DNA of 59,081 nt from a virus. The stretch lies in IMG/VR virus record IMGVR_UViG_3300029497_000003. One strand, given 5' to 3'. The notes below the pieces were generated by a model, which had not been told where the DNA came from, did no database searches, and saw only the letters and a list, made by a program, of their open reading frames with translations. Shown here piece by piece: positions 36,437-54,923 of the stretch (the first letter of the stretch is position 1; the number at the start of each line of letters is the position of its first letter). The position numbers and the translations under genes were made by a program.

Positions 36437-36475
36437 CAACTACGATTAGTCTGTAGCCGGTAATTGTTTTTATTC
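36437..36475 (-). repeat. conserved post-stop stem-loop element, copy 2
   Basis: 16 of 16 core identity with copy 1. Starts at the RtcB stop codon. Confidence 0.7.
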
Positions 36476-37678
36476 GTTTGCTTTGAAATTGTAAATCGGT
36501 TTTATAATGTCAACTATTTCAACAGTATCTTTTATATTTCCAATTATTTCATCCATTGTTTTATATGCCATAGGACTTTCATCAATCGTGGATGTATTTA
36601 CAGATGTTGTAAATATTCCATCCATTGCTTTTTGATACTCTTCTAGCAAAATGCTTTCTTTTGCTTTTGACCTGCTCATTGTTCGCCCCGCTCCATGCGG
36701 TGCTGAATAATTCCAATCTTCATTTCCCTTGCCAATTCCCAAAATGCAACCGTCACGCATGTTTATTGGTATTAGTACTTTTTCCCCCGCTTTTGCAGAA
36801 ATAGCACCTTTACGAACAATATTTGTATCGTGTTCAATGTAGTTGTGAATCGTTTGAAATCGTTCAGTTTCTTTTGTAACTTTCCAACACATATAGTAAC
36901 AAATAATGCTCTGAATGGCTCTTCTATTAATTTCCGCAAACTCTTGACATAATTTCATATCGTGCAAATACATTTCTCTATGTTTTCCAACAAGATATGA
37001 TAACTCTCTAGGGATTTTAGTTGTATTTGCTTCGTAGGACTGCTTTAATTCTTTGATAGCCTTGCTGATTTCTCTTTCTCTTTTGCATTTTTTGTATTCA
37101 GCAATCAATTTCTCACTGTCTTGTTTGAAATTCGATTTTCCCGATATATCATCAATCGCCATTTGCTGATATATTTCCGCAACTTGCTTTCCGACATTTC
37201 TACTTCCCGAATGAATAACAAGATATTTATTATTCTTGCTATCGCTATCAACTTCGATAAAATGATTGCCGCCTCCCAGCGTGCCACAACTTCTTTTCAG
37301 CCAATCTATATTTTTCAACTGTTCCTTGCAATACAATTTTTCAATAATATCACTTGCGACAGATGAATTTTCTTCTTCATGAACTTTTCTACCACTTGGA
37401 ACATATTCTCTAATGACGTTATCTAATCTCTCAAAATCAATATCAATATTCCCCAAGTTTGTAGTAAGCATCCCACAGCCTATGTCAACTCCAACAATGT
37501 TCGGTATTACTTTTTCTCCTAAATCAGCAGTAAATCCTATAACACACCCTGCTCCCGCATGAACATCTGGCATAATTCTTATCTTGCAATCCGAAAATGC
37601 CGGCTGTTTTATAAGCGTATATATCTGATTTAACGCTTCCTGTTCTATATTTTCTGTAAATATTTTCAAATCAGCCAT
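36470..37678 (-). CDS. rtcB: RtcB RNA ligase
   Basis: MPDVHAGAGC, GGGNHFIE, HSGSRNVG, PHGAGR motifs. Start MADLKI after a GAAAGGA RBS. Confidence 0.9.
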   Translation of the reverse strand: MADLKIFTENIEQEALNQIYTLIKQPAFSDCKIRIMPDVHAGAGCVIGFTADLGEKVIPNIVGVDIGCGMLTTNLGNIDIDFERLDNVIREYVPSGRKVHEEENSSVASDIIEKLYCKEQLKNIDWLKRSCGTLGGGNHFIEVDSDSKNNKYLVIHSGSRNVGKQVAEIYQQMAIDDISGKSNFKQDSEKLIAEYKKCKREREISKAIKELKQSYEANTTKIPRELSYLVGKHREMYLHDMKLCQEFAEINRRAIQSIICYYMCWKVTKETERFQTIHNYIEHDTNIVRKGAISAKAGEKVLIPINMRDGCILGIGKGNEDWNYSAPHGAGRTMSRSKAKESILLEEYQKAMDGIFTTSVNTSTIDESPMAYKTMDEIIGNIKDTVEIVDIIKPIYNFKANE

Positions 37679-37715
37679 GATATATTCCTTTCCGCTGATA
37701 ATCAGCAATCATTAT

Positions 37716-41419: not shown

Positions 41420-41518
41420 AATATTATTACCTGCCTTTCTGATAACTGCCTTATTAACAAAACAACAAACAGGCACTAAGGCTTGTGCTTTTCGCTTCGT
41501 CAAGCTAGTTTGTTGTAA

Positions 41519-41590
41519 TCGGATAGACAGGACCTGAACCTGTGACTACTTGAATAAATCAAGCGTTACTCCCAACTGAAGTACTATCCG
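41519..41590 (-). tRNA. degenerate tRNA-like gene, nominal anticodon UUA
   Basis: 7-bp acceptor CGGATAG/CTATCCG, T-arm ACAGG-TTCAGGT-CCTGT, G18G19 present. D-stem has only 2 of 4 pairs; loop is ATTTATT with a pyrimidine at position 37. Confidence 0.4.
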
Positions 41591-42042: not shown

Positions 42043-42114
42043 CTACCCCTATCAGAATCGAACTGATGATGTAAGAATCAAAATCTTATGCCTTGACCGC
42101 TTGGCTAAGGGGCA
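42043..42114 (-). tRNA. tRNA-Gln (anticodon UUG)
   Basis: Acceptor TGCCCCT/AGGGGTA, D-arm GCCAAGCGGTCAAGGC, anticodon arm TAAGA-TTTTGAT-TCTTA, T-arm ATCAG-TTCGATT-CTGAT. Confidence 0.85.
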
Positions 42115-44033: not shown

Positions 44034-44729
44034 TCAATTTTCTTTACTTGATTTATAGTTATATTTTTCTAAGATTGGCTTATATAATTCCTCTTCTGCC
44101 TGTTTTCGCGCGGCTGCTGCTTCTTCTAGCGTCTTAAAATAGCCTATTATATTTAACTTGCCTTTAAAGCCAATGTATGCAACATAATTGTTCGTTGTTT
44201 TTCGATAGCTTACACCCTTAACTCCGGAACTGTTCGCTTTCCCCAGCTTATCGCTGTTAATTGTACTAAGATTTGTTTTTTCTACCTGCCCTAAATATTT
44301 ATTAATATTTTTCTTGGAATTTTCCCGCTTCACACATCCACAGGACACGCATCGACCAGATGTAAGATTGTGTTGAGTTTTATTAAAGATTTTCCCACAA
44401 TTTAAACATTCACACTCCCATATCGTTTGAACTCCCTTCCCACTTATGCGTTTAACTACTTTAATCTTGTTAAATATTTTGTTTGTTAAATCTATATCAT
44501 TCTCTTTTTTAACAACGCCCTTGTATTTTTTGCTTAATTTTTTAGCTGCTACACAGCCACACGATTTACTTTTCCCATACTTTAAATTTTTAGCACTTAC
44601 TTCTTTAACTTTTCCACAAATGCAGCGACATTTGTAATATCTTTCCCCGTTTTTACTTGGGGCTTCTTCTATAGCTGTCCAATACGTGCCATAAATTTTT
44701 TCTTCTGGTTCAAATTCTATTCTTTTCAT
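44034..44729 (-). CDS. AP2-domain DNA-binding protein with two Cys4 modules
   Basis: YYKCRCICGK...SCGC twice. C-terminus GVKGVSYRKTTNNYVAYIGFKGKLNIIGYFKTLEEAAAAR. Confidence 0.65.
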   Translation of the reverse strand: MKRIEFEPEEKIYGTYWTAIEEAPSKNGERYYKCRCICGKVKEVSAKNLKYGKSKSCGCVAAKKLSKKYKGVVKKENDIDLTNKIFNKIKVVKRISGKGVQTIWECECLNCGKIFNKTQHNLTSGRCVSCGCVKRENSKKNINKYLGQVEKTNLSTINSDKLGKANSSGVKGVSYRKTTNNYVAYIGFKGKLNIIGYFKTLEEAAAARKQAEEELYKPILEKYNYKSSKEN

Positions 44730-45269: not shown

Positions 45270-45316
45270 AATTGTTTACCCTCCAGCATTTAGCTGCCTT
45301 TCTTTTAATTTCTGTC

Positions 45317-45348
45317 ATTATAATAACACTAATATTAGTGTCTGTCAA
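45317..45348 (-). promoter_or_regulatory. leftward promoter with an embedded palindromic operator
   Basis: Minus strand: TTGACA-gaCACTAATATTAGTGt-TATTATAAT. Confidence 0.7.
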
Positions 45349-45357
45349 TAAGTTTGT

Positions 45358-45585
45358 TTAAAAATATTTTATCTTTTCTTCGTCAGTTGGCGTTACTTCT
45401 ATTATATCGGACGGCTGGCACTTTAATATAATACATAATGTATTAATCGTGTCTGTTGTTATGCCTTTTCCCTGTCTTATATTCTGTAGTGTCGCTTGAC
45501 TAATTATCTTGTCTTTGCGCATTTTTGTACTTGTATATCCTCTGTTAGATAATTCCTTAAGCACATCTATTTTATATCTCCACAT
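45358..45585 (-). CDS. XRE-family HTH regulator
   Basis: ISQATLQNIRQGKGITTDTINTLCIILKCQPSDII. Own TTGACT-17-TACAAT promoter upstream. Confidence 0.75.
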   Translation of the reverse strand: MWRYKIDVLKELSNRGYTSTKMRKDKIISQATLQNIRQGKGITTDTINTLCIILKCQPSDIIEVTPTDEEKIKYF

Positions 45586-45679
45586 CTGTTTTGCTCCTTT
45601 CTCATAAGGTTACAAACATTGTATATTTTTTATGTTTAAAAGTCAATTAAAATATCGTATAAAATCTCTAATTTTGGTG

Positions 45680-45711
45680 TTGACAAGCACTAATATTAGT
45701 GTTATTATAAT
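45680..45711 (+). promoter_or_regulatory. rightward promoter with the same palindromic operator
   Basis: TTGACA-agCACTAATATTAGTGt-TATTATAAT, an inverted copy of 45317-45348 (2 mismatches). Confidence 0.7.
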
Positions 45712-45831
45712 CTTGCAAATAAAAAAAGGCGGTCACTCCTACTAAGAACGAACCGCCACCCGGCGGTCTGGTGTAGGGCTGCAACCTTGCCACTGACGAG
45801 ACAAGCAAAATATGAAAGGATGGTTAATATT

Positions 45832-46089
45832 ATGATGATTTTACTTGAAAAGATTAAGAAGTTGGAACAACTGGAAAAAGTCGCAAACGAAGCAGAGGCA
45901 AGATATACAGAAGAACCAGAAAACGCAGAGCTTGAAAACGCCTTTGATGAGGCATACAAGGCAGAATTTGACGCATATATCAGCGCTGCGAAGTATATCG
46001 AATATATAACAGGCGGTGCAGTTGATTTTATGAAAGCAAAGGAATTGATACAGACTAAACGCGCGGAGCTTTTGCAGCTCTTAGCATAA
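45832..46089 (+). CDS. hypothetical helical A/E/K-rich protein
   Basis: ATG 8 nt after AAAGGATGG. Preceded by a roughly 115-nt leader with alternative hairpins. Confidence 0.5.
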   Translation: MMILLEKIKKLEQLEKVANEAEARYTEEPENAELENAFDEAYKAEFDAYISAAKYIEYITGGAVDFMKAKELIQTKRAELLQLLA

Positions 46090-46090
46090 T

Positions 46091-46133
46091 TAGCGAGGCT
46101 GGCACCTCCGGGGTTCAATTCCCCGGCTTGCTA
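46091..46133 (+). ncRNA. tRNA-like acceptor/T-arm minihelix 1
   Basis: tagcgag-N10-ccgggg-TTCAATT-ccccgg-cttgcta-A, starting 2 nt after the stop codon. Confidence 0.45.
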
Positions 46134-46138
46134 AAATA

Positions 46139-46170
46139 AAAGAGAGGAAGTACAATATACTTCCTCTCTT
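46139..46170. terminator. 12-bp perfect hairpin (terminator-like; T-run on the minus-strand side)
   Basis: agagaggaagta-caata-tacttcctctct. Confidence 0.5.
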
Positions 46171-46265
46171 ACCATTCAAATAACATTCACCTAAAATTAT
46201 ATAATGACAAATGCCTTTGTTATAATAGCATTAAAATATAAAAAAGTAAAGGAGATTTAAAAAAG

Positions 46266-46988
46266 ATGGCAGGATATTATAAAAATCAAATGAGTAACAA
46301 CGCTGTTTGGGCGTATTCGCAAGGTGAAAAACCTATGTATAAGTGGACTAAAACCGCTATTTTGGAAGAGATAGATAACATTTTTTGGCACGCCGACAAA
46401 GAAATAGAAATAGATTTTAAAAAAATGACATTAAAGGAATTAAAAGAGCGTTTTTTGGTATGGTATTCTTGGCATCATACAGGAAAATTTTACAATGAAA
46501 CAGATTTTTATTGTATAGAAGAAAGTACAGTATTAAACTTTACGGTTAAAGAATTCGATGAAATTATATCTAACAGAAAAAAGAGAACGTATACAAGAAG
46601 AACTGCGGCAGAGTTAGAACAGATTAAAGCAGAAAAAGAAAAAGATATATTGCTTACCGAGAGAAGCAAAGAACTTTATAGAAAATTATATATAATTTAT
46701 ATATATAAATCAGATTTAAAAACCTTTAAGGGGCTAATAAACAGGTTTTTGAATGATAAAATAAATATAGAAAAAGATTTTGCTGAAAGCGTAGAAATCG
46801 CAAGGCAAAAAGAAGAACACAGAATAAAATGCTGGCAAGGAGATGTAAACGACTGGCACAACAGAGAAGGAATTGTTGATTTGTATTATAAAGACATAAG
46901 AGCTTATGTCTTAAGAATGCGAAGAGTAGAAGATTATCAAATCGACAAAAAGCTTTTAAAGCAAATAAAAAACAAAATAGTGAATTAG
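46266..46988 (+). CDS. hypothetical protein
   Basis: 240 aa, AAAGGAG RBS, tgttataat promoter-like element upstream. Confidence 0.6.
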   Translation: MAGYYKNQMSNNAVWAYSQGEKPMYKWTKTAILEEIDNIFWHADKEIEIDFKKMTLKELKERFLVWYSWHHTGKFYNETDFYCIEESTVLNFTVKEFDEIISNRKKRTYTRRTAAELEQIKAEKEKDILLTERSKELYRKLYIIYIYKSDLKTFKGLINRFLNDKINIEKDFAESVEIARQKEEHRIKCWQGDVNDWHNREGIVDLYYKDIRAYVLRMRRVEDYQIDKKLLKQIKNKIVN

Positions 46989-46994
46989 CTTTTT

Positions 46995-47019
46995 AAGGGT
47001 GTACAGGTTGCACCCTTTT
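46995..47019 (+). terminator. intrinsic terminator
   Basis: aagggtg-N9-caccctt followed by tttt. Confidence 0.55.
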
Positions 47020-47020
47020 G

Positions 47021-47060
47021 GCTTGCTGTGGTTTGGCTGGTTCAATTCCAGCCGCAAGCA
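47021..47060 (+). ncRNA. tRNA-like acceptor/T-arm minihelix 2
   Basis: gcttgc-N8-ggctgg-TTCAATT-ccagcc-gcaagc-A. Confidence 0.4.
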
Positions 47061-47084
47061 TTAAGCATATATTTTTATATGCTT

Positions 47085-48756
47085 CAGACTGTAGACAAAG
47101 TGGCACTAGGATACAAAGCTTAGTGCCACTTGTCTCTGAATTTTAAATAATTTTATACCTTTTAATATTTTATGTTGTTTTTTACATATATTATGTGGAT
47201 AATCTCCACTTACCTCCCTGTATTTTTCTAACATCCTTGCTAATTTTTTAAGATTCATGCATGCAAAAGTAAGCCCTGCTTTCATTTCCATACGGGCTTT
47301 TCCTATCATCTGTGTATATCTAAATCCATGATTCTCTTTGGCTGTTCCAAAAAGTCTCTCTATCGTTTCTTTTCTGTGAGAATAAAGTTCCTTCATTCCT
47401 ATTGATAATCTTATATCTTCACACTTTTCTATATAATCTTCCCAGATATGTCTTGTTACCAACTTTACATGATTTTTGCTTTCGGTACATTGACTTATAT
47501 ATGGGCAGTTACTGCATGTTTCCGAACAGCTCTTATATTCTTTATACCCATCACGATTAGTTGTTGAATATTTAAGAACTGCGTTGTTAGGACATATATA
47601 ACAATCAAAGTATTCATCATAAACATACTCATATTTCTTAAAGAATCCTTGTTTTGTCATTGGTCTCTTATATGGAAGAAGTGGCTGAATACCATCATCT
47701 ATCAATAGCTTTGCAATTGCAGGAGTTTTATATCCTGCATCCGCTACAAGTGTTTTTATTCCTATATCTTTTATCTTATTATACAAACTTATAAAGGTTC
47801 TGCTATCATGCATATTTCCAGGATTAACTGAGTAACCAAGAATCCAGCCAAACTTATCACATGCAGTTTCAATTGAATATGCGAATACATGCTTATGTTC
47901 ACCTTTCCGGAACCATCCGCTTTCTGGATCGGTTGTGCTGCACTTAATAGTTTTCTCATCTTTCGGAACATCTGTCGTAAAGTCTTTCATTCCTCCGCCA
48001 GAAGATGACTTATCATTATCTTTATCTGAATCCTTCAAAGGCTTCTTTCCATGAGCCTCTCTGTCAGAATTTATTTCTTTTTTTAAGAGTTCTTCATAAA
48101 ACAAAGCTTGTTCATGAGCAATCTTTGCTCTCATTTTTTTACTGTTAGCACATGCTTTCACATGAGTTGCATCAACAAACACTTCTGTTGGATCAACAAA
48201 TTTATACTTATAACATTCTGATAAGATATGAGAAAAGATTTGTTCAAACAAGTCTGTATCCTTAAATCTACGAGTGTAGTTTTTACCAAATGTAGAAAAG
48301 TGGGGAACAGAATCATTCATTTCCAATCCCAAAAACCAACGGTAAGCAACATTAACTTCTATTTCTTTCATAGTCTGCCGCATACTTTTAATTCCATAAA
48401 GATACTGAATAAAAGGAATCTTTATAAGCATTACTGGATCCATACTAGGTCGTCCAAAATCAGGAGAATACTTATCCTGAACAAGGTCATAAATAAAGTT
48501 CCAATCTATTGCTTTATCAATCACTCTTAAAAGATGATCTTTTGGCACTAAATCATCCATACAGAACATCTGAATCTGTTCTCTTTTTTTATCTGCATTG
48601 ACTGTCATCATAAAACACTCACCACCTGATTTTTGATATAATAATTATATCAAAAAAGTGCTACAAAGTAAGTATTTATCTGCATTTGTCACATTTTAAT
48701 TAATCCTGAAATAAGAAAAATCCGAGACTTTCGCCTCGGACTTTGTCTACAGTCTG
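47085..48756 (-). mobile_element. IS1182-family insertion sequence
   Basis: 17-bp terminal inverted repeats cagactgtagacaaagt (47085-47101 and 48740-48756) around one transposase gene. Confidence 0.8.
47106..48611 (-). CDS. IS1182-family DDE transposase
   Basis: LVPKDHLLRVIDKAIDWNFIYDLV...GRPSMDPVMLIKI...MRQTMKEIEVNVAYRWFLG. Confidence 0.8.
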   Translation of the reverse strand: MMTVNADKKREQIQMFCMDDLVPKDHLLRVIDKAIDWNFIYDLVQDKYSPDFGRPSMDPVMLIKIPFIQYLYGIKSMRQTMKEIEVNVAYRWFLGLEMNDSVPHFSTFGKNYTRRFKDTDLFEQIFSHILSECYKYKFVDPTEVFVDATHVKACANSKKMRAKIAHEQALFYEELLKKEINSDREAHGKKPLKDSDKDNDKSSSGGGMKDFTTDVPKDEKTIKCSTTDPESGWFRKGEHKHVFAYSIETACDKFGWILGYSVNPGNMHDSRTFISLYNKIKDIGIKTLVADAGYKTPAIAKLLIDDGIQPLLPYKRPMTKQGFFKKYEYVYDEYFDCYICPNNAVLKYSTTNRDGYKEYKSCSETCSNCPYISQCTESKNHVKLVTRHIWEDYIEKCEDIRLSIGMKELYSHRKETIERLFGTAKENHGFRYTQMIGKARMEMKAGLTFACMNLKKLARMLEKYREVSGDYPHNICKKQHKILKGIKLFKIQRQVALSFVS

Positions 48757-48765
48757 TAGCACCGA

Positions 48766-49521
48766 TTATTCGGTGCTTTTCTTTATATCTTCGATTGCAT
48801 CTTTTATACTCATATGATTATTATTTATTCTTCCATATAATTTACCATATGAAATATTTTCCATTCTTGAAATTTGAGCCAATATAAGTGCTTGCCCTTT
48901 CCATTCATATTTTTTATTTCTTCGCTTATTTATTGCTTGTTCTTGAATAGTAACCCATCTGCAATTTTCAGGACAATAACCTTTATCGTTATCTATTCTG
49001 TCTAATGAAAGACCATGCTTATATCCGTTTCTCATAGACCAAGCGATAAAATTTTTAACACCATCCTTTCCTCTCCATTCAAAGCAAACATCTATTCCTC
49101 TTGCTCCGTAATAAGGATAACTTATATTTTTTTCATCATAACATCTTTCCATCATACTCTTGTGTTTTCTGTATAATGGACTATCAGTATATCTTTCAAT
49201 TCCAAGCTCTTTTTTGATTGCTTTGTTTTGTCTTATGTTCCTATATAGTTTTTGGTGTGCGCTGTTTTGGTCTTTGCAATTTTTATTTCCCAATACACAA
49301 TTCTCTGGGCAATAATCCTTTGTACTATCAATTCTGTTAAGTCTTAGACCTTTTGTATATCCATTTTCATTACACCACTTTCTAAAATTATCTCTATCAT
49401 GCCATTCTTCACATACTTTTATCCCCTTAGCTCCGTAACTTTTAAATGCTATACTTTTAGGGTTATAACATCTTCTCATCATTTCGTAATGTAGTCCACC
49501 TATACTGTTTAAGTCAGCCAT
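48766..49521 (-). CDS. duplicated-domain DNA-binding protein (degenerate HNH_3-like repeats)
   Basis: Two copies of Y..M..RCY......YGA.GI.VC.EW....F..W...NGY..GL.L.RID....YCPENC. Confidence 0.45.
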   Translation of the reverse strand: MADLNSIGGLHYEMMRRCYNPKSIAFKSYGAKGIKVCEEWHDRDNFRKWCNENGYTKGLRLNRIDSTKDYCPENCVLGNKNCKDQNSAHQKLYRNIRQNKAIKKELGIERYTDSPLYRKHKSMMERCYDEKNISYPYYGARGIDVCFEWRGKDGVKNFIAWSMRNGYKHGLSLDRIDNDKGYCPENCRWVTIQEQAINKRRNKKYEWKGQALILAQISRMENISYGKLYGRINNNHMSIKDAIEDIKKSTE

Positions 49522-53402: not shown

Positions 53403-54764
53403 CTAAAAATTCTTAAGCTGTATTTCAATATTCCCATTGACAATTACTATCTTGTCAATTATAGTCTTTAGTATCAAGTTCTTTTGTTTCTTGTCGACCT
53501 TATCCCAAATGTCGGCAAGTTTTTTTATGTTCTCATAAACAAACTCCTTTTTTTGTGTATTAATTGCGTTTTTGCTTTCAGCGGCAATGTTTAATTTCAT
53601 TTCCTTAATCTGTGCTTCCAGTTCCTTAATCATTTCCAAGACAGTATCATTTCCGTCAGCATACAGATTATACAATCTTTTTAGCTTAATCTGTTCCTTT
53701 TCAAGCTGTGATTGCATAATTTCAAGTTTTGTCGCCTTTTCTTTTGGCTTGTAAGATGATAAATCAAGTGATATTTTAAGAATTTCTTCTTCTACTTGTT
53801 TCTCTATCTCGTCCGCCCATTCAAGCGAATTATTACAGCTTGCATTATAATTAGGCAGATATGAAAGTGATTTATTTCTTGAACAGCAATAAATCTTATG
53901 CTTTTCACTACCCCATTTTTGATAACGCATTTTGCAACCACAAATTCCACAATAACATAATCCGGTCAATAAATTAGGTTCAGTTATGCAGTAAGTTTTT
54001 GCTGAACACCTTGACTTTCTTAGTTCTAATCCAAGATTAAACCTATCTTTATCAAAAATAGGTTCGTGTTTTCCTTGATATATTTTGCCTTTGTAAGGTA
54101 TCATTCCGATATTTACAACGCCGGTCAAAATGCTTCTAGTAACAAGTTCAGACTTAAAGCCACAAATTTCTTTAATTTTCGCATCTGAATAGCCAGATAT
54201 GAACAATTCAAGACCTCTTCTTGCCTGTTCTGCACGTTCCGGGATAGGTATTAATATGCCTTGTTCCTTACTGTAGGAATAACAGTAAGGCAAATTGCCA
54301 CCGCCCATCCAGTAACCCTGCTTAATTCTTTCAAGCATACCGCCACGCATACGCAACATCATAGTATTTTTATCAAGCTGTGCAAATACAGCCATCATCT
54401 GCGTGTAAGCCTGCTCCATAGGACTATTATAGCTTACACTATCGTGTACACATTTAAACACAACATTATATTTTTGAAATACTTTTTCAATTAGATATAT
54501 TCCGTCAATCATATTTCTTGATAATCTGTCAAGTTTAAAAGCTACAACACAACTTACTCTTTTGCGGCTACAATCATTCACAAGCCTTTGAAGTTCTGGT
54601 CTATCCATATTTGTACCTGTGTAACCATCGTCAATATACCAATCTGTTATTACAAGCTCATTTTTTCTGCAATAGTTTTCAATATCCCTTTTCTGGCTAT
54701 CAAGTCCGTTGCCCTCAACAGCCTGTTTTTCAGTGGATACTCTCATATAAGCAACACATTCCAT
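53403..54764 (-). CDS. int: large serine recombinase (integrase)
   Basis: VAYMRVSTEKQ, DDGYTGTNMDRP, FKLDRLSRN, Cys-rich zinc ribbon, C-terminal coiled coil. Start MECVAY after an AAGGGAGA RBS. Confidence 0.9.
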   Translation of the reverse strand: MECVAYMRVSTEKQAVEGNGLDSQKRDIENYCRKNELVITDWYIDDGYTGTNMDRPELQRLVNDCSRKRVSCVVAFKLDRLSRNMIDGIYLIEKVFQKYNVVFKCVHDSVSYNSPMEQAYTQMMAVFAQLDKNTMMLRMRGGMLERIKQGYWMGGGNLPYCYSYSKEQGILIPIPERAEQARRGLELFISGYSDAKIKEICGFKSELVTRSILTGVVNIGMIPYKGKIYQGKHEPIFDKDRFNLGLELRKSRCSAKTYCITEPNLLTGLCYCGICGCKMRYQKWGSEKHKIYCCSRNKSLSYLPNYNASCNNSLEWADEIEKQVEEEILKISLDLSSYKPKEKATKLEIMQSQLEKEQIKLKRLYNLYADGNDTVLEMIKELEAQIKEMKLNIAAESKNAINTQKKEFVYENIKKLADIWDKVDKKQKNLILKTIIDKIVIVNGNIEIQLKNF

Positions 54765-54923
54765 ATTTTTCTCCCTTATAAAAAAATGTGCCGCATTTAT
54801 CACATTATACGGCACATTGTAACACATATTTACTTATTGTCAATTATCTCTGCGATTATCTTTAGTAAGCTGTCTGAAAGAGTTATGTTTTCTGTTTTCA
54901 CACTCTCTCCGTTTTGAGTAACC

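Follow-up and report, generated by a model that had tools for sequence, protein, structure and literature searches.

Two tRNA-like minihelices in a plus-strand island

The window examined here is the whole of the 59,081-nucleotide (nt) IMG/VR virus record IMGVR_UViG_3300029497_000003, a tailed and probably temperate phage. Nearly every gene of this phage lies on the minus strand, and a single plus-strand island carries two short tRNA-like elements, E1 and E2, which are the subject of this work. The island comprises a promoter and a structured leader, the open reading frame (ORF) ORF85, E1 and a hairpin, then ORF240, the intrinsic terminator T1, E2 and an AT-rich hairpin, T2 (Table 1).

Both elements are built from an acceptor-like stem and a G/C T stem, 6 + 6 bp and thus 12 bp in total, a linker of 10 nt in E1 and 8 nt in E2 that contains GG, and the T-loop TTCAATT. 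This common design, proposed in the original prediction, is borne out by the sequence and by RNAfold, which returns the minihelix as the minimum-free-energy structure of both elements (-19.1 kcal/mol for E1 and -18.4 kcal/mol for E2). The structural description given there is also right in that both strands of each acceptor stem are local and the D and anticodon arms are absent, and so is the placement: E1 starts 2 nt past the stop codon of ORF85, with a seventh pair (t46091-a46133) present in this window, and E2 follows ORF240 and its terminator. E1 contains one G.U pair, the fourth in the conserved 6-bp stem and the fifth if the stem is counted as 7 bp, and does not encode CCA. The sequence GGCTTGCT occurs as a direct repeat at 46125-46132 and 47020-47027; what serves E1 as 3' acceptor strand serves E2 as the 5' one. 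Hence, a repeat of 8 nt stands on either side of the ORF240 cassette, and each acceptor stem corresponds to the other with its strands exchanged.

A descriptor scan of the 59 kb found exactly E1 and E2 on the plus strand, against a mean of 0.02 matches in shuffled sequence (n=50), while the sole match on the minus strand is a genuine tRNA-Gln. A general covariance model, R2, trained on nine class A sequences, one of class B and one of class C, gives 57.3 bits for E1 (E=1e-13) and 35.6 bits for E2 (E=2e-7) in the window, and the next match has 17 bits. An earlier model built from class A only (R1) was too sequence-specific and failed to detect E2. A MAFFT alignment failed to bring the structures of classes A and B into register and was excluded from the counts.

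With default settings ARAGORN reports no tRNA in 45600-47200, and the Rfam tRNA model gives no match there even at E<=10. The 5' acceptor strand and the T stem are just 8-10 nt apart, and the D and anticodon arms of a cloverleaf are absent; what E1 and E2 share with a canonical tRNA is the T arm with a UUCRANY loop stacked on the acceptor over 12 bp. At the relaxed setting -ps80, a check that had been suggested beforehand, ARAGORN places a pseudo-tRNA and a "permuted tmRNA" (ORF85 plus E1) on the T arm of E1, calls that we regard as artefacts. A transfer-messenger RNA (tmRNA) was rejected: there is no G3:U70 pair (the G.U pair of E1 lies elsewhere and E2 has U3-A70), no pseudoknots and no resume codon, and the Rfam tmRNA model aligns to the T arm only (7.9 bits in the window test, 8-15 bits overall). 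The only Rfam family that spans the whole of E1 is mascRNA/MEN-beta (RF01684), with 16.8 bits in the window and 26.3 bits in the related locus L063 at a gathering threshold of 42.5. E2 is weakly aligned by the Plastid-ycf2 model as a tRNA that lacks 37 internal positions; the consensus of this family we take to be the antisense of a tRNA. An integron attC site, whose GTTRRRY core is not fitted by GTTCGAT, and an RNase III site, for which the helix is too short, were rejected as well. Y RNA families gave no Rfam match at E<=10 in 45400-47300, no Ro-like gene was found among the subset of ORFs scanned, and no other class of self-cleaving ribozyme than the hammerhead was matched in Rfam.

It had been argued that the elements are not simply the 3' halves of tRNA genes carried in an attachment (att) site, and a search of 185,579 species genomes (one genome per species) agrees. 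The 3' half of E2 (22 nt) has 0 exact matches and that of E1 (21 nt) has 5, none of them a tRNA gene. Four of the five represent this minihelix again, with a hairpin, a ribosome-binding site (RBS) and an ATG after it in a phage-like context, and their carriers are metagenome-assembled genomes (MAGs) of Lachnospiraceae, Clostridium sp. CAG:510 and a Treponema-labelled MAG. These matches speak against a fossil att site and indicate that the hosts are probably Lachnospiraceae. BLAST of 45600-47105 against the INPHARED phages gave no match.

Conservation and placement in related phages

With the ORF240 and ORF85 proteins, 91 loci were retrieved from 55-60 kb IMG/VR gut-phage contigs (individual loci are given as L and a number), and a second, independent sample comprised 120 loci. 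ORF85 has homologues in 59 IMG/VR loci, with 70-93% of the amino acids identical; ORF240 is found in 32 loci and is missing or swapped in many others. E1 is present in more than 200 related gut-phage loci, and both elements are conserved in the ORF85/ORF240 set. The commonest T-loop among the relatives is the canonical TTCGATT, with TTCGAAT and TTTAATT also occurring, and TTCAATT is a lineage variant common to the closest relatives of the window. The same change from TTCGATT to TTCAATT is seen in both elements of the window lineage (L297-L300); L298 and L299 carry TTCAATT in E1 and not in E2, because their E2 is of a different subtype.

The elements fall into at least seven sequence classes with different stems and the same 6 + 6 bp architecture, T-loop consensus and linker GG. 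Besides classes A and B, these include the designs catccgt...cagggTTCGAATccctg...acggat, gcgtt...tgggTTCGATTcctgcg gatgc and tcgcgt...ttccggTTCGATTccggga acgcg, and the 120-locus sample added GCAACC/GGTTGT and AAGTGA/TCACTT. On 647 kb of loci R2 detects 154 elements, all 154 of them on the operon strand; in the 120-locus sample 141 share the strand of E1, and 9 are on the other.

Pairing is observed in 97.1% of the alignment cells, compared to 67.9% after shuffling, and 10 of the 12 pairs have changed on both sides. The covariation analysis in related phages that had been proposed as a check yields a score of 0.704, mostly from changes between classes; shuffles give 0.207, with none of 500 reaching the observed value, and slid controls 0.02-0.14. 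Within classes the wobble count (30 G.U cells, 13 A.C cells) is a weak discriminator. The equivalents of U54, U55 and A58 are invariant or nearly so, that of R57 is always a purine, and the linker G is found in 68 of 73 distinct sequences, the rest of the linker being variable. The two bases 3' of the helix are never CC. An A directly after the helix, which the original prediction made part of the design, is conserved for E2; in relatives of E1 the position is divided between A, T and C (33, 31 and 9 distinct sequences).

Nucleotide diversity (pi), computed without fixing the stem positions beforehand, is 0.00-0.02 in the T stem, T-loop and 3' strand of the element beside ORF85. Third codon positions of ORF85 reach 0.15, the linker 0.25 and the 19 nt after the element 0.54. 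At 4850-4910 of L095, at the E2 position behind the terminator, a T arm (GCCCGG TTCGATT CCGGC) is found for which no convincing local 5' acceptor complement was detected; this may be a variant that has degenerated or is constructed differently.

The minihelices occupy a narrow position in the operons. In 93 of the 154 distinct contexts (60%) the element starts at most 5 nt from the stop codon of the upstream ORF, compared to 2.4% of random positions; a further 19 start within 20 nt, and the remainder are mostly of the E2 type behind a terminator. An ORF begins 21-60 nt downstream in 101 of the 154 contexts, usually after a spacer of the form TTTAC-CCnnnnGGG-AATAAA and an RBS. The order in L056 is ORF85, a class A element, a small hairpin, an RBS and an ORF, then a class C element, a hairpin, an RBS and another ORF, and finally T1, a class B element and T2.

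Type II hammerhead ribozymes are placed alike. In the combined set, 64 of 76 distinct hammerhead contexts start at most 5 nt from the upstream stop, and an ORF follows within 60 nt in 60 of them; the stop codon often lies inside stem II of the ribozyme (TAA-GUC or UAG-CC). As this placement matches that of the minihelices in the same operons, hammerheads and minihelices fill the same kind of slot. The operons of relatives carry one to three intact hammerheads, and in L063 three of them precede E1. A pattern scan found 40 hammerheads on the island strand of the first loci and 57, versus 6 on the other strand, in the second sample. Six loci exceed the RF02276 gathering threshold of 37 bits (L045 66.9, L047 64.1, L063 62.4, L096 58.6, L052 49.6 and L048 49.3 bits). 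The variant adjacent to ORF85, complete in L083 (2913-2979), L063 (2912-2978) and L095 (4196-4259), stays just below it with 28-36 bits.

The island and its neighbourhood

The leader of the island had been described as containing ggcggt, accgcc and ggcggt at 45728, 45752 and 45762, able to form two mutually exclusive hairpins. The repeats are present as stated; their explanation is a different one: the 5' leader hairpin has become joined to what is left of a hammerhead. When the leader is compared with the loci by BLAST, these two modules separate: in relatives the promoter-proximal hairpin is followed by an RBS and an ORF, without a hammerhead remnant, and the hammerhead module, AGUCGAAACCGCC...GGCGGUC|UGG...CCACUGAUGAGAC, lies directly upstream of ORF85. 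In the window, L041, L052 and L297-L299 both are fused at their common ACCGCC, which gives rise to the mutually exclusive hairpins. Through the fusion the leader hairpin module has taken the place of AGUC, the 5' strand of stem II, which puts AAC opposite GAC, where relatives have GUC/GAC or GCC/GGC. The GAAA core is also short of one A, with CGAA-CCGCC in the window at the place of CGAAACCGCC in relatives. Owing to these two losses, the copy in the window is, judged by its sequence, probably inactive; it has no Rfam match at E<=10.

Table 1. Features of the plus-strand island and other genes of the window mentioned in the text.
Feature	Position	Strand	Remarks
RtcB RNA ligase	36470-37708	-	phrog_1075, E=5e-128
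tRNA-Gln(UUG)	42043-42114		
HTH_26 repressor-like (Cro/CI-type) gene	45358-45585	-	75 amino acids; between two promoter copies
Island promoter	45680-45708	+	TTGACA, 17 nt, TATTAT, with TG; near-consensus
Palindromic operator CACTAATATTAGTG	45688-45702		within the -35/-10 spacer of the island promoter
5' leader hairpin module	45728-45757	+	GGCGGT, 18 nt, ACCGCC; right after the promoter in most relatives
Truncated type II hammerhead	45749-45802	+	CGAA 45749-45752; stem III ACCGCC/GGCGGT 45752-45767; cleavage-site C 45768; stem I 45769-45792; CUGACGA 45793-45799; GAC 45800-45802
ORF85	45832-46089	+	small protein; RBS GAAAGGA 45815-45821; stop TAA 46087-46089
E1, class A minihelix	46090-46134 (helix 46092-46132)	+	AGCGAG 46092-46097; linker 46098-46107; CCGGGG 46108-46113; T-loop TTCAATT 46114-46120; CCCCGG 46121-46126; CTTGCT 46127-46132
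Hairpin after E1	46140-46170	+	13-14 bp; A-run before, no plus-strand U-run after
Possible internal extended -10 promoter	46218-46226	+	TGtTATAAT; ahead of ORF240
ORF240 cassette gene	46266-46988	+	stop TAG 46986-46988
T1, intrinsic terminator hairpin	46995-47019	+	short U-run; abuts E2; kept in relatives
E2, class B minihelix	47019-47061 (helix 47021-47059)	+	GCTTGC 47021-47026; linker 47027-47034; GGCTGG 47035-47040; T-loop TTCAATT 47041-47047; CCAGCC 47048-47053; GCAAGC 47054-47059; A47060
T2, AT-rich hairpin	47063-47084	+	after E2
Insertion sequence	47080-48772	-	exact ends uncertain; 22-nt inverted repeats; DDE_Tnp_1_6/DUF772 transposase 47106-48611
Large serine recombinase	53403-54827		
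Terminase, portal, major head protein, tape measure, endolysin			structural and lysis genes
MazG-like enzyme			

The promoter of the island belongs to a 46-nt promoter/operator module that is present as an inverted duplicate, at 45303-45348 and 45680-45725, with the CACTAATATTAGTG palindrome between -35 and -10 in both copies; the copy at 45303-45348 drives the minus-strand genes. Since this operator-bearing promoter is duplicated inversely around a Cro/CI-type helix-turn-helix gene, the island is a transcription unit under repressor control, and probably an early one. The arrangement of the inverted pair and the HTH_26 gene resembles a compact genetic switch for the island and the leftward genes. 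The internal promoter listed ahead of ORF240 is a candidate from reading the sequence. ORF85 and ORF240 have no family in Pfam or PHROGs, and ten cassette ORFs of relatives gave nothing in Pfam. The hairpin after E1 scores as a terminator on the minus strand only. Genes for HNH/AP2-type endonucleases lie on both sides of the island (44034-44729 and 48766-49521, both on the minus strand) and could aid cassette turnover.

Directly after E2 the window is interrupted by an insertion sequence (IS). It occurs in no relative, including L297-L300 with an identical ORF85 protein, and lies outside the minihelix system. In relatives free of it, T2 is followed by UUUUAUUU, which together form a second terminator; in the window the IS separates the T2 hairpin from its U-tract. 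In L056 (4175-4420) and most other relatives, T2 is followed by a promoter-like sequence (TTGAAA..17..TATGCT) and ~200 nt of conserved sequence, which is apparently non-coding and richer in G+C and has no Rfam match; in the window the IS splits this region from E2.

Elsewhere the phage encodes an RtcB RNA ligase. The substrates of RtcB are 2',3'-cyclic phosphate and 5'-OH ends, as left by hammerhead cleavage. The 80 best RtcB contigs in IMG/VR show zero overlap with the ORF85/ORF240 loci, and at least 3 contigs are common with the list for E1; with an overlap of only 3, a linkage between RtcB and E1 is unproven. Besides the tRNA-Gln gene, ARAGORN calls an ochre-suppressor-like tRNA with anticodon UUA at 41519-41590 on the minus strand, which falls below gathering in the Rfam tRNA model, and an int-alpA RNA motif (41449-41515, minus strand, 58.9 bits) lies 3 nt downstream of it. 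This neighbourhood is reminiscent of gut phages in which ribozymes adjoin suppressor tRNAs (PMC10879173). The large serine recombinase, ~6 kb from the elements, is the only integrase found in the part of the window ORFs scanned.

Processing signals, cassette joints and other readings

Whether E1 and E2 are processing signals for RNase P and RNase Z, trans-cleaved counterparts of the hammerheads, which in addition act as cassette joints, we judge from our analysis to be about evenly balanced. Among the three roles put forward in the original prediction, processing has fared best, being favoured by the stop-abutting placement, the strand bias, the conservation across classes and the equivalence with hammerheads, all of it comparative evidence. 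As minimal tRNA mimics, the elements would present a coaxial helix of acceptor and T arm together with the T-loop, and the GG of the linker may imitate the D-loop. The minihelices would be transcribed within the repressor-controlled early operon of accessory genes, where host RNase P would cut at the 5' edge of the acceptor stem, 1-3 nt past the upstream stop, and RNase Z past the unpaired base 3' of the helix. The absence of an encoded CCA fits the RNase Z route of Firmicutes. Together, both cuts would part the cistrons: the small hairpin usually found behind the element would become the 5' end of the downstream mRNA, and a minihelix of ~40 nt would be set free and could receive a CCA. In the equivalent slots of related phages, type II hammerheads would do the same in cis. 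As the only conserved sequence between fast-changing cassettes, the elements may double as recombination joints for cassette exchange.

Bacterial RNase P, RNase Z and the CCA-adding enzyme act on acceptor/T-arm minihelices as substrates, and the processing reading builds on this behaviour and on the analogy with two natural systems, plant mitochondrial t-elements and prophage hammerheads. The t-elements carry the motif GGTTCRANYCC and direct the cleavage of mRNAs by RNase P and RNase Z, so that their edges coincide with mRNA ends, and a released t-element can gain non-encoded C/A (Forner et al. 2007, PMC1920247). The phage elements resemble them in being non-decoding tRNA-like folds with this conserved T arm that adjoin coding units near mRNA or coding ends. 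They differ in that t-elements are organellar, non-canonical cloverleaves of ~74 nt, whereas the phage elements are two-helix minihelices of ~41 nt, known here from sequence, which come in several classes, alternate with hammerheads and mark cassette boundaries. Tandem hammerheads flank prophage genes, among others in Clostridium scindens, and transcripts of ~2 kb are cleaved in vitro; processing of long phage RNA has been proposed, with the function stated to be unclear (Perreault et al. 2011, PMC3088659). The minihelices share with these arrays (RF02276) the slot past the stop codon, 10-60 nt before the next ORF, in polycistronic accessory operons. The ends would differ: hammerheads cleave themselves to a 2',3'-cyclic phosphate and a 5'-OH, while a minihelix, which has no catalytic core, would need host RNase P and RNase Z and leave a 3'-OH and a 5'-phosphate.

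Other tRNA-like RNAs are related more distantly. Like mascRNA/MEN-beta, the elements place a tRNA-like structure at the end of a longer transcript, and the 3' end of mascRNA is formed by RNase P; mascRNA, however, is eukaryotic and nuclear, folds like a full cloverleaf with an anticodon-like arm, and the score of E1 lies far below its gathering threshold. The tRNA-like domain of tmRNA also combines an acceptor and a T arm with a reduced D-loop analogue containing GG and has no anticodon arm, but both acceptor strands of E1 and E2 are local. In mitochondrial tRNA punctuation and in synthetic tRNA- or ribozyme-flanked arrays, tRNA spacers or ribozymes serve interchangeably to cut a transcript. 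These systems use complete tRNAs, while here, in a bacteriophage found in nature, the spacer corresponds to no more than a tRNA's top half.

Several points weigh against processing. The case is built entirely from comparing sequences, and the contigs found for these islands in Logan/ENA are long DNA assemblies. The alignment behind the pairing and covariation counts was fitted to the R2 model. Since most of the covariation separates one class from another, the number of independent events behind it is small. Members of a single class tolerate mismatches, and clean compensation was seen just twice, as GGTTGG/CCAACC in L043 and as an additional A-U pair inserted in L057/L065. That the T arm and 3' strand hardly vary goes beyond structural need and could be explained by homogenisation through recombination or by a sequence-specific role of the DNA. 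E2 lies behind the intrinsic terminator T1, so that only read-through RNA includes it. Where translation ends 1-3 nt before the element, the ribosome would open the acceptor stem, and after an RNase P cut the upstream mRNA would lack a hairpin at its 3' end. Finally, no gene family was found to have a hammerhead behind it in one phage and a minihelix in another; the ORFs of ~84-85 amino acids examined for such a swap belong to three unrelated families.

Alternatively, the elements could be module joints at the DNA level only, tRNA-derived boundaries at which cassettes are swapped by homologous or endonuclease-stimulated recombination, with an RNA fold that has no function. Class A links at least 14 upstream and ~29 downstream contexts, and chimeras with their junction in the T-loop exist: in L040 the 5' half is of class A and the 3' half of class C, and in L020 and L025 the 5' half has been exchanged. 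The repeat of GGCTTGCT around ORF240, the variable linker between an almost invariant T arm and 3' strand, the tolerance of A.C mismatches and the HNH genes flanking the island point the same way, and some E2 copies carry a 15-nt deletion. Given the mosaic joints and chimeras, a role in recombination, alone or added to another, is plausible, and the very low diversity of the T arm would fit it. Homology alone, however, does not explain why the linker GG, the T-loop consensus, 12 stacked pairs and a local 5' complement are kept by at least seven classes that differ in their stem sequences, nor why the elements abut stop codons and are followed by a hairpin and an RBS, as hammerheads are. Joints are compatible with processing as a second role; as the only role, we consider them unlikely.

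A more doubtful alternative is that the released, CCA-tailed minihelices are themselves the product and act as decoys or sponges for host factors or toxins that recognise the acceptor end or T arm, or as charged or modified mimics. A strong operator-controlled early promoter, the very high conservation of the T-arm sequence and the other genes of tRNA warfare in this phage (RtcB ligase, tRNA-Gln, suppressor tRNA) would suit such a role. The occurrence of several classes in one operon and the strictly intercistronic placement, however, suit processing better than dosage, and anticodon nucleases, the usual reason for RtcB and tRNAs in phages, could not be decoyed by an element that has no anticodon arm. 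We consider this role improbable. The third role proposed originally, that of fossil att sites, here taken to include decayed tRNA genes that no longer have a function, is hardly credible and already largely refuted: the T arm and 3' acceptor strand do resemble the 3' half of a tRNA, and the Plastid-ycf2 alignment of E2 and the relaxed ARAGORN calls on E1 agree with this, but the genome search returned no tRNA gene, the serine recombinase adjoins neither element, the stems are more conserved than synonymous sites, and a local 5' complement is found in every class.

Carried further, the punctuation reading would have gut Clostridia phages assemble their early accessory operons from swappable RNA modules, hammerheads as well as tRNA mimics that borrow RNase P and RNase Z, which also act as joints for anti-host cassettes. 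We think it rather unlikely that this holds in full. In its boldest version, the CCA-tailed minihelices would also decoy defences that target acceptor ends, and the RtcB of the phage would re-ligate or circularise RNAs cut by hammerheads.

In the literature searched and in Rfam 15 we found no description of such minihelices in phages or bacteria. The logic is known from tRNA punctuation, t-elements and mascRNA, while the setting and form, a 41-nt minihelix that alternates with hammerheads in a phage cassette operon, appear to be new. Because the motif is missing from Rfam, it offers a new means to delimit accessory and anti-defence cassettes in gut phage genomes, and it is a possible compact processing tag for engineering in Firmicutes. 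If the processing reading is true, the elements would be a natural substrate of ~41 nt for tRNA-processing enzymes and the first counterpart in a bacterial virus, known to us, of mitochondrial tRNA punctuation and t-elements. The role of prophage hammerhead arrays has been open since 2011, and an element that would depend on host enzymes and occupies hammerhead slots argues that the selected function is the cutting between cistrons.

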